A DNA stretch of 64,000 bases from Bdellovibrionales bacterium. GTDB taxonomy: Bacteria > Bdellovibrionota > Bdellovibrionia > Bdellovibrionales > JAUICD01. Shown one piece after another: positions 4,197 to 5,190 of this stretch (positions within the stretch are counted from its first letter, which is position 1; each line of letters starts with the position of its first letter). The translations under genes and the position numbers were made by a program. The stretch covers positions 640,001-704,000 of the forward strand of contig OZ241865.1 of the NCBI GenBank assembly GCA_965203275.1. The letters are read 5' to 3'. Below the pieces are notes generated by a model that did no database searches, was not told the origin of the DNA, and worked only from the letters and a program-made list of their open reading frames with translations.

Positions 4197-5190
4197 TTTC
4201 ACTCAAAATGCATCATGCCGTCTTTTGCACTTGAAATGAACCACACATCTGTTTCCCTAAAATTGAACTAGCCTCTGGCTACTTTTGGGCAGTTAGCCCG
4301 ACGACTGTCGTCGTCGATCAAAGGCTAACTCCCTCAAAAGCTTGTTCAATTTTAGGAAGAAGGATGTCCTCATTTTTTTACTTCATATTAAGGAAAAAGA
4401 TTTCCTTCTGATGTTTGCTCTGACAGCTATCGCTGTCCAAAAAGAGCAATGTCGTTGGTTCACTAAAAGTAAACTAGCCTTTGTTTCACTCAAAGTGAAC
4501 TGGCCTCTGGCCACTTTTGGACAATGACCGCAAAGGCTTTCGCCTTTGACAAAATGGTCATTGCCTCAAAAGCCTGTTCACTTTGAGTAAGAAGGATATC
4601 ATCGTCTCTTAACTACATGTTAAGGGTTTGTTTCACTAAAAGTAAACTGACCTCTGGTCACTTTTGGGCAATCAGCCCGACGGCTCTCGCCGTCGATCAA
4701 AGGCTGATTGCCTCAAAAGTCCGTTTACTTTTAGTAGGGAGGATCTCCTCGTCTCTTAACTACATGTTAAGGAAAAAGTTCCTTTATTGCATTGAGCTTG
4801 CTCTTAAGGTAATAAAAGCACTTTTTCCCTAACATGGTGTAGAGGAGTAAAAGGATCCTCCTCTACTCAAAATAAATGGATTTTCTAGGCAGTTAGCCTT
4901 TGATGACGGCGGTAGCCGTCGGGCTAACTGCCAGAAAACATGCCAGAGGCATGATGCATTTTGAGTGAAAAAAAATGAGGACTTCGGAAGGCTCCCACTG
5001 CCCTATCCTCAAATAAAAACAAAATAGAAAAAGCAGAATCGAAGGGTGGCGGGTGGGGTTAGGGATAAGGGAGGTTATCCTTGTCTCTTTACACGATGTT
5101 AAGGAAAAAGTGCTTTCTTACACCTTTTGACTGCAATGACTACCGTCGTCGATCAAAGGCTGGCAACCTCAAAAATCCGTTTACTTTAAG
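4197..5190. repeat. Island of structured palindromic (REP/REPIN-like) elements
   Basis: Several ~105-bp nested-hairpin units (TTTCACT(A/C)AAA...CCTCTGG...stem-loop...TTT(T/G)AGT) in both orientations with CATGTTAAGGAAA tails. Confidence 0.9.

Follow-up and report, generated by a model that had tools for sequence, protein, structure and literature searches.

What is the abundant palindromic repeat that recurs across a 64,000-nucleotide stretch of a Bdellovibrionales genome, and how does it spread? The stretch (the window; positions 640,001 to 704,000 of contig OZ241865.1) belongs to a 2.57-Mb genome rebuilt from a metagenome as a single contig (G000), which we compared with a sister genome of the same genus (G001). 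An initial annotation had described the repeat as a structure-selected, multibranched mobile element more elaborate than the repetitive extragenic palindromes (REPs), and the evidence from fold and from insertions agrees with that description. The repeat is mobile, it is joined to its targets at one fixed end, and its fold is conserved. On balance it is probably a selfish DNA element, non-autonomous and operating in the manner of the bacterial interspersed mosaic elements (BIMEs) and REPINs (REP doublets forming hairpins), its folded minus strand being recognised and joined one-endedly.

The repeat unit and its abundance

The unit had been given as ~105 bp. We find it to be ~150 nt, with a 6-nt head (commonly TGTTTC), a 101-nt core that forms a three-way junction, and a tail; the longer figure is required because a conserved tail ending ATGTTAAGGAAA comes after the core. 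The many copies that had been seen across the window were recovered by a profile search as 45 copies and pieces, 7.9% of its length, and a structure-anchored pattern matched 26 times in the window but not at all in 100 shuffles. When a profile made from 300 sampled copies was run against G000, it detected 1,393 non-overlapping copies and pieces, or 6.2% of the genome. There were 493 distinct sequences among 713 near-full cores.

Covariation in the four helices

Stems were counted in the 660 copies that could be parsed; 780 were near full length by profile, and the remainder did not fit the parser. P1 formed a perfect 13-bp stem in 531 of the 660, compared with a mean of 97 (maximum 114) for shuffled partners. 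The corresponding counts were 626 for P2, 630 and 496 for the outer and inner parts of P3, and 632 for P4; in 374 copies all five helix segments were perfect at once. The conserved bulged T in P3, which the initial annotation had pointed out, was kept in every one of the 698 copies in which it could be parsed (82 of 780 could not be).

To these counts we added an alignment of 33 copies chosen by hand: 14 came from the window, 16 from G001 and 3 from contigs of another genome (G004). Here 32 of 43 pairs varied on both sides and 95.8% of cells paired; the covariation score was reached by none of 500 shuffles, for a structure that was itself derived from the same sequences. The compensatory changes claimed for four stems were thus upheld: all four helices covaried, around one branch point, and no consensus structure was detected in the tail of these copies. 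Among 396 unique cores, normalised mutual information was 0.52 between the two P1 arms, which lie 90 nt apart, but 0.18 between the 5' arm of P1 and P4 and 0.08 between that arm and the loop, though both of these lie between the P1 arms. As the linkage of stem halves tracks nesting and not distance, the covariation is not merely that of a few clonal subfamilies, and relatedness alone fails to account for it.

Stem alleles are shuffled concentrically, with 82 stem combinations among the fully paired copies. Of the 129 copies with mismatched P1 arms, 78 were linear recombinants of two common alleles. The sister genome carried different stem alleles with the same fold, loops, bulge and ends. In some G001 copies (for example L025:449 and L028:15304) the P2 hairpin is duplicated in the 5' arm.

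The folded strand

The P4 loop had been read as C-GNNA-G on the other strand, and of 561 four-base loops read on the minus strand, 548 were indeed G..A (353 GNRA and 195 GNYA). A C-G pair closed 623 of the 658 loops scored, and five-base G...A loops also occurred. In G001, 20 of 30 tetraloops were G..A, adding GTTA, GCTA and GTCA. The available text of two papers describes d(cGNNAg) as a stable DNA motif (PMC8373063; PMC2275088). Single G.T mismatches comprised 39 distinct types on the minus strand versus 16 on the plus (p=0.003), and in all 33 aligned copies the minus strand has an invariant T.G pair at the terminal position; internal G.U pairs were rare, about 25 of some 1,340 cells by hand count in the 33-copy alignment. 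There was no orientation bias relative to genes among single-orientation clusters between co-directional genes, 81 of 172 lying in sense (p=0.49). From the c(GNNA)g loops, 35% of them non-GNRA, together with the minus-strand wobbles and the lack of orientation bias, we infer that the minus strand is the folded one, more likely as DNA. The earlier proposal of a single-stranded DNA or RNA element therefore holds as to the single-strand fold, and the evidence leans toward DNA over RNA.

Insertion at one fixed end

The head is a fixed end, 1,018 of the 1,393 matches in G000 beginning at profile positions 2-5. We classified what precedes 1,060 heads. In 476 cases it was a truncated piece of another copy running the same way, the break points peaking in the P2 loop; in 116 the piece ran the opposite way, and 71 of these joints fell at a single tail position; in 468 it was other sequence. 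The joints carried 0-5 extra G/T-rich bases, or 1-2 bases shared with the target. Target sequence preference was weak: of the CT or CA dinucleotide at which REP-type elements are cut and joined, the joint in the P2 loop fits a shared T or TG (CA on the minus strand), but other sites displayed just a weak base bias plus the extra bases. The tail end, by contrast with the fixed head, was variable, and new copies brought along 15-470 bases of flank. In nested insertions the outer P1 arms matched on either side of the inserted copy in 53 of 147 cases (shuffles: mean 18, maximum 33), and part of the target was lost. A set of 152 target sites gave a positive result for hairpin preference, which we do not count, the set being contaminated by stubs and drawn from multi-copy DNA.

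The region 4250-4972 of the window, which holds four full copies with interspersed head stubs and one resumed fragment, illustrates these joints. On the plus strand, the head stub of an older copy (4195-4219; head, 5' arm of P1 and half of P2) is followed by a second, degenerate head stub (4223-4249) that ends in the P2 loop, where copy 1 joined. Copy 1 (4250-4398, plus, found by structure pattern and profile) is oriented as in the initial annotation, with the minus strand as the one that would fold. It comprises the head (4250-4255), P1 (4256-4268 with 4344-4356), P2 (4269-4281, loop TCT at 4274-4276), the P3/P4 arm (4282-4340) and the tail (4357-4398). Behind it come a tail-side linker that it brought along (4399-4413, plus) and the resumed inner fragment, P3/P4, of the older copy that it hit (4414-4453, plus), which is truncated by the next head; 4223-4453 as a whole is thus a nested insertion. 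A further head stub ending in the P2 loop (4456-4481, plus) is joined to full copy 2 (4482-4625, plus), the tail of which is cut at ATGTTAAGG and linked by 3 extra bases to full copy 3 (4629-4777, plus); these three were found by profile. A palindromic linker (4778-4821) then lies between two tails, making a BIME-like tail-to-tail pair with full copy 4 (4822-4972, minus, structure pattern), an inverted recombinant whose P1 arms do not match. The series closes with two partial copies (5068-5109 and 5128-5191, plus, profile).

Empty and filled sites could be compared at several loci. Four-helix-bundle genes were interrupted by copies while their paralogues remained intact, and at the readable paralogous empty sites there was no short target duplication but instead small deletions. 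The automatic list of empty sites had 125 rows, many of them false pairings, and only the clear rows were used. Between rpsQ and rplN, G000 is empty, G001 carries four units, each a repeat plus about 50 nt of tail-side flank, and contig C11 of G004 carries three. In tandem arrays the joint of the head lies past the tail of the element itself, on the downstream side, and the final flank continues without a break (9 distinct array junctions); the junctions often carried a few extra G/T-rich bases. Among 441 clusters in G000 there were 101 tail-to-tail and 5 head-to-head arrangements, and all 441 lay outside those open reading frames of at least 120 aa that survived the repeat filter. Copies of the repeat break genes and CRISPR repeats. 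The repeat looks recently active, because identical haplotypes occur at many G000 loci. The cumulative GC skew of G000 is flat, with no evident origin or terminus, as is to be expected after many rearrangements.

Four-helix-bundle cassettes and Rpn nuclease genes

Two gene families stood out as neighbours of the repeat. All 14 four-helix-bundle (PF05635) cassettes with heptamer arms in G000 had a copy no more than 250 bp from the Pfam match. In G001, 12 of 19 cassettes had a copy within 450 bp (hand count), compared with 10 of 129 background genes within 350 bp. Insertions in the G000 cassettes had a single orientation, and those in G001 both. The nine intact four-helix-bundle genes of G000 are under purifying selection (pN 0.02, pS 0.25). 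Runs of heptamers (GGGATCY and kin) flank these genes; there are about 350 such runs in G000, and 225 of 352 were followed by the inverted tail of the repeat. The runs in the window (6560-6670) form mostly direct, not inverted, arms and are usually joined to a repeat tail.

Genes for Rpn nucleases (PF04754, PF12784) had a copy within 250 bp in 28 of 30 cases in G000, on both sides in 16 (hand count), against a background of 31% (copy near) and 3.7% (both sides) for 1,060 genes of at least 250 aa. The flanking copies mostly had the head towards the gene, at many different positions, and in some cases the insertion itself marks the end of the Rpn gene. In ten other multi-copy families taken together, 71 of 219 genes had a neighbouring copy; dispensability alone therefore does not explain the association with the Rpn genes. 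A family of secreted-looking proteins with repeated IS3 OrfA-like helix-turn-helix domains (G000:C1:828464-830377 and kin; L160) adjoined the repeat in 7 of 7 members of one cluster. In the Rpn literature, RpnA is described as a non-specific endonuclease that has no cruciform preference and generates products which prime polymerase (PMC5350276), and Rpn genes are toxin-antitoxin defence genes that are not autonomously mobile (PMC10400941).

Other candidates for a mobilising enzyme

That the window holds no cognate enzyme stands with one amendment: it contains an IS1634 transposase gene, the ends of which, like those of IS256 in G000, are unrelated to the repeat. This gene (56716-57774, minus) is internally deleted and lies in a repeat tail with a direct repeat of about 58 bp, and copies of the repeat flank the inserted element (56472-58125, minus, profile). 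A non-coding element of about 190 bp with both IS1634 ends (6683-6875) is a miniature inverted-repeat transposable element (MITE) derived from IS1634, with 4 near-full members among 48 matches in G000.

Several other proteins were considered as the enzyme and rejected. GIY-YIG gave one match per genome, in a frame of 610-650 aa that we read as UvrC; DUF559 matched the terminal part of a large, broken gene, and the 1.9 kb inspected there contained no repeat. A stand-alone 187-aa tyrosine recombinase consisting of the catalytic domain only (G000:C1:2047789-2048349; L008) occurs in G001 and also in G002, which lacks the repeat, and Cas1 occurs also in G003, which likewise lacks it. Reading the tail as a dif-like site failed, as the start of the XerD arm is not conserved and the skew gave no position for a terminus. 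None of the 25 CRISPR spacers extracted, which came from three of four arrays, matched the repeat. The sole Y1 protein of G001, IS200-type TnpA-like, has no G000 homologue and no copy of the repeat in its 3.4-kb locus; three reverse transcriptase (RT) genes of G001 are also without G000 homologues, and a copy lies near one of the three loci.

A model for the spread of the repeat

In the model that we favour, the minus strand would fold while single-stranded during replication or repair, and a nicking-and-joining protein would recognise the fold (the P2 loop, the bulged base and the junction). The end at the foot of P1 would be joined to a loosely chosen site, often nearby or within an older copy; host polymerase would then copy through the element and past its tail into the flank, and the far (tail) end would be resolved imprecisely. 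Copies would recombine, and mainly those with re-paired stems would be amplified again, giving rise to concentric mosaics. The strand, chemistry and enzyme of this scheme are what we infer. If it is right, the enzyme could well be a lost or unrecognised HUH-type protein; an activity tied to the PF05635 cassette is somewhat less likely, and the Rpn PD-(D/E)XK nucleases are less likely again, on a par with some other protein. Mobility without any transposase, with the repeat as the non-coding partner, seems to us rather unlikely; in it, a folded single-stranded DNA end that is read as a three-way junction would be joined one-endedly into nicks made or exposed by a protein not known to be a transposase (the strongly conserved, multi-copy four-helix-bundle protein, or Rpn nucleases working next to their own genes), and folded copies would exchange entire hairpin tips.

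A number of results weigh against the model. The link to HUH nucleases of the RAYT (REP-associated tyrosine transposase) kind, which the initial annotation had drawn, was not borne out: Y1 (PF01797) had no match in G000 even at E≤1, Y2 (PF04986) had none over the cut-off in five genomes, and PF00078 (RT), PF01548 (IS110), PF00665 (IS3-type) and PF02735 (Ku) had none in G000, the genomes being 90-92% complete. RAYT loss is known. Populations of REPINs shrink after it, however, according to the available text of bioRxiv 10.1101/2021.07.10.451892, yet the repeat looks recently active, so that the enzyme, if there is one, would still be present but unrecognised. Head junctions are less sharply defined than HUH joints, and they revealed no rule for a target dinucleotide; the recurring junctions are mostly copies of a few events, and therefore the insertion counts overstate the number of independent events. 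In contigs of two public runs we saw no circle, empty allele or ongoing movement. One result in favour of the model, that among haplotypes of common alleles those with paired P1 occurred at two or more loci more often than unpaired ones (79 of 244 versus 4 of 32, p=0.02), is confounded by age, and inner-P3 pairing gave no such enrichment (p=0.49). GNRA loops, as well, are still the majority of tetraloops (63%).

The candidate partners are subject to similar reservations. On the large contigs of G004, which lack the repeat, none of 17 four-helix-bundle loci had a copy, and an apparently perfect co-occurrence of the four-helix-bundle gene with the repeat fell because the G004 copies lie on three small, contaminant-looking contigs. 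Rpn genes with a copy numbered only 5 of the 21 examined in G001 and 0 of 12 in G003, and REPtron-like flanking of Rpn genes was not upheld in either genome. Given this weak association and the Rpn literature, we regard both families as insertion hot spots and as candidate, unproven partners.

Alternative explanations

We consider unlikely a scheme with no dedicated enzyme at all, in which the hairpin stalls replication and break-primed template switching by host enzymes copies the unit and repairs its stems, some of the breaks being made by Rpn nucleases and the covariation being largely a mutational by-product. Fuzzy junctions with microhomology, extra bases and deletions would follow naturally from it, as would the 78 of 129 P1-mismatched copies that are linear recombinants; template switching can create and maintain stems (PMC8794818, in the text available), RpnA products prime polymerase (PMC5350276, likewise), and 28 of 30 G000 Rpn genes lie near a copy. 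Stem repair should erode asymmetry, however, and yet the bulged T is present in 698 of 698 copies, a one-sided internal loop occurs in all top types, and P2 lies in the other arm in just 10 of 780. Loops, bulge and ends are also the same in a sister genome with other alleles, RpnA lacks cruciform preference, and the Rpn association is weak in G001. A quite improbable alternative is that a minus-strand RNA folds and is copied back by target-primed reverse transcription, possibly with an Avd-like four-helix-bundle cofactor, the fixed RNA 3' end being the head and the variable 5' end the tail. Its geometry accommodates extra bases and a pair of ends of which one is fixed and the other variable, the GNRA majority and the wobble in favour of the minus strand fit an RNA, G001 has its three RT genes, and the insertions in G000 cassettes all have one orientation. 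On the other hand, G000 has no RT, those of G001 lack G000 homologues and have a copy near just one of three loci, GNYA and five-base G...A loops are common while internal G.U pairs are rare, and the repeat has no orientation bias relative to genes and stands in both orientations at G001 cassettes.

That the repeat is instead a cis element beneficial to the host, its RNA structure selected for mRNA stability, termination or nucleoid organisation, is a shade more doubtful still. Strong covariation, the position of all 441 clusters outside the surviving reading frames, and such roles described for REPs (available text of PMC3333891) are in its favour, but the repeat shows no orientation bias, its positions are unshared at the one orthologous site examined (rpsQ-rplN), copies break genes and CRISPR repeats, and it was not found in 138 of 141 genomes of the order; it may have some secondary use for the host. 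That the repeat is a classical MITE, mobilised by a DDE transposase of IS1634, IS256 or IS3 type residing in the genome, is very improbable. The head and the inverted tail do have a short motif in common (TTTC-M-Y-TAA), and IS1634, which is active in this genome, produces long direct repeats; against this, neither IS1634 nor IS256 has ends related to the repeat, G000 has no IS3-type core, no fixed short target duplication is found at readable paralogous sites, and the tail end is unfixed. An assembly artefact, which a single-contig, metagenome-derived genome with flat GC skew might bring to mind, has a negligible probability: contigs of two public runs match unique stretches of G000 at ~100%, with repeat words at more than 100x the unique depth (these runs may be the source data), and the independent genome G001 holds the repeat with other alleles. 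The artefact reading is refuted for the repeat family as a whole, not for single junctions.

Comparison with known systems

The closest likeness is to REPs, BIMEs and REPINs as described in the available text of PMC3333891 and PMC8266576. Like them, the repeat occurs as hundreds of intergenic copies with a strand-specific fold and a required bulge; it forms inverted pairs with variable linkers, mosaics and local tandem amplifications, captures flank, and lands in or near older copies, and such elements can persist beyond their enzyme. The BIME model in those texts predicts mosaics, tandem amplification, excision, flank capture and low cleavage specificity. The differences are in the unit, which is 150 nt with four helices and a three-way junction where a REP is a simple hairpin of 20-40 nt; in its share of the genome, 6% versus about 1% in E. 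coli; in junctions with extra bases and deletions; and in the lack of a RAYT in G000 or G001. The repeat also has no GTAG/CGTC tag at the 5' foot of its main hairpin: neither motif occurred among the 6 plus-strand nucleotides that precede P1 in any of 660 copies in G000 or 37 in G001, and the minus-strand foot is pyrimidine-rich. On the plus strand, GTAG does overlap P1 at its 3' foot, before the weakly folding tail, in 478 of 660 copies in G000 and 13 of 37 in G001. By unit size, tag position and absence of a RAYT, the repeat is not a REP or REPIN. Nor does it qualify as a MITE, its ends being unlike those of IS1634 and IS256 and the readable paralogous empty sites lacking a fixed short target duplication.

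With IS91, in the available text of PMC13181058, the repeat shares two unlike ends of which one is fixed, run-through into the flank, and the absence of target duplication. It differs in being non-coding, in having no Y2 transposase, and in having no target-supplied tetranucleotide, the head bases being absent from empty P2-loop and cassette targets. In the attC sites of integrons one strand folds, and structure and extrahelical bases are kept more than sequence. The same is true of the repeat, but it is dispersed, self-nesting and found in all gene contexts, whereas attC sites stand one per cassette in an array, and no R-box crossover point was seen in it. As to an integron integrase, G000 has two tyrosine recombinases only, of which the 187-aa protein was below the cut-off and the other was not scanned. 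ERIC, RUP, Correia and RPE are non-coding, lineage-restricted palindromes and MITEs of 100-200 nt that form long imperfect hairpins. The repeat resembles them in all these respects; it differs in having no matching transposase ends (IS1634 and IS256 were compared), no short target duplication, one unfixed end, and extensive compensatory turnover of alleles.

Distribution

A covariance model run against 141 genomes of the order detected the repeat in three, G000, G001 and G004, and not in the other 138. In G001 there were 26 matches in 220 kb, made up of eleven stretches picked regardless of the repeat. In G004 the copies are confined to three small contigs (C1, C4 and C11). Contig C11 carries a second ribosomal protein operon, making contamination by a G001-like organism probable; its rplB is 96% identical to that of G001, while the other rplB of G004 is 69% identical. 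Because of this resemblance, the comparison of rplB covering C11 only, we treated the repeat-bearing contigs as contaminants. The repeat has been found, then, in only one genus among the 141 genomes.

Pattern scans of viral and metagenome contig collections matched nothing, and phage and plasmid records were unmatched; a scan of a genome collection returned at least 34 loci, all from one record among the matches listed. Public runs with matches included sponge and marine metagenomes (shares 0.24-0.33), and no RNA data set was among those listed. Rfam 15 had no family above its gathering threshold, so that no known structured RNA matches the repeat; the window yielded only two tRNAs, and 4150-5250 gave 12 sub-threshold matches to generic hairpins. 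We found no description of the repeat in the open literature searched. We take the element to be a new and unusually elaborate form of a familiar type of bacterial repeat.

Other features of the window and the genome

Further clusters of the repeat, located by profile, occur throughout the window. At 6909-8106 a tandem array with a period of 204-206 bp has four plus copies, the head of each joined to an inverted tail stub, and is followed by two minus copies. A cluster directly behind the tRNA at 13183-13256 contains a stub with nested and tandem copies (13262-14118, plus), another consists of full and partial copies (19852-20452, minus), and a third of a stub and two copies (37026-37544, plus). 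The cluster at 41025-41630 (plus) includes a 3' piece of a four-helix-bundle cassette at about 41560; that at 43173-44232 (minus) has five near-full copies and a stub, one head being joined to a 3' fragment of such a cassette at 43964. At 47260-48114 there are three plus copies or pieces, one minus copy and a stub. A 245-bp unit in three tandem copies (48118-48849) abuts a head stub.

Other multi-copy non-coding modules are interleaved with the repeat (4977-5075, 13770-14000 and 6080-6500): a G-rich hairpin module, an A/T-rich module and a palindromic module of 200-300 bp. Two paralogous genes for small membrane/coiled-coil proteins (8208-9204) each have a repeat head before them. A tandem array of nine near-identical genes (14134-19491, minus; 136-191 aa), members of a large family in G000, encodes proteins of two N-terminal types that carry a membrane segment at the N terminus and 11-residue coiled-coil repeats in varying number.

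Elsewhere in G000, a type V CRISPR locus (G000:C1:235349-246000; L182) has type V Cas1, Cas2 and Cas12a-like repeats. Its 1,325-aa effector has RuvC-like motifs and a zinc finger and matches no NCBIfam model; a similar zinc-finger match lies in a 1,343-aa frame of G001, and a divergent 982-aa reading frame of the locus is presumably a piece of Cas12a. A copy of the repeat landed inside the array, and one spacer (G000:C1:245322) matches 26 of 27 bases inside another array of the same genome, at 2266567.

Implications

How bacterial non-coding palindromic repeats spread has been settled only in part, mainly for REP/RAYT systems. The repeat described here has reached 6% of a genome without a RAYT, RT or matching transposase, with a branched fold that survives fast turnover of its sequence. 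It leaves more than a thousand junctions to be read, and work on the enzyme can start from a substrate of defined length (150 nt) and from two short proteins that are candidates. So far the repeat is known from a single uncultured genus, a narrow reach. In that host-associated lineage it probably drives rearrangement and gene disruption, as the flat GC skew, the broken cassettes and the CRISPR repeats that were hit suggest. Should the transposase-free reading be true, one of two orphan protein families would gain a function, and there would be a new route by which a non-coding repeat comes to occupy several per cent of a bacterial genome.

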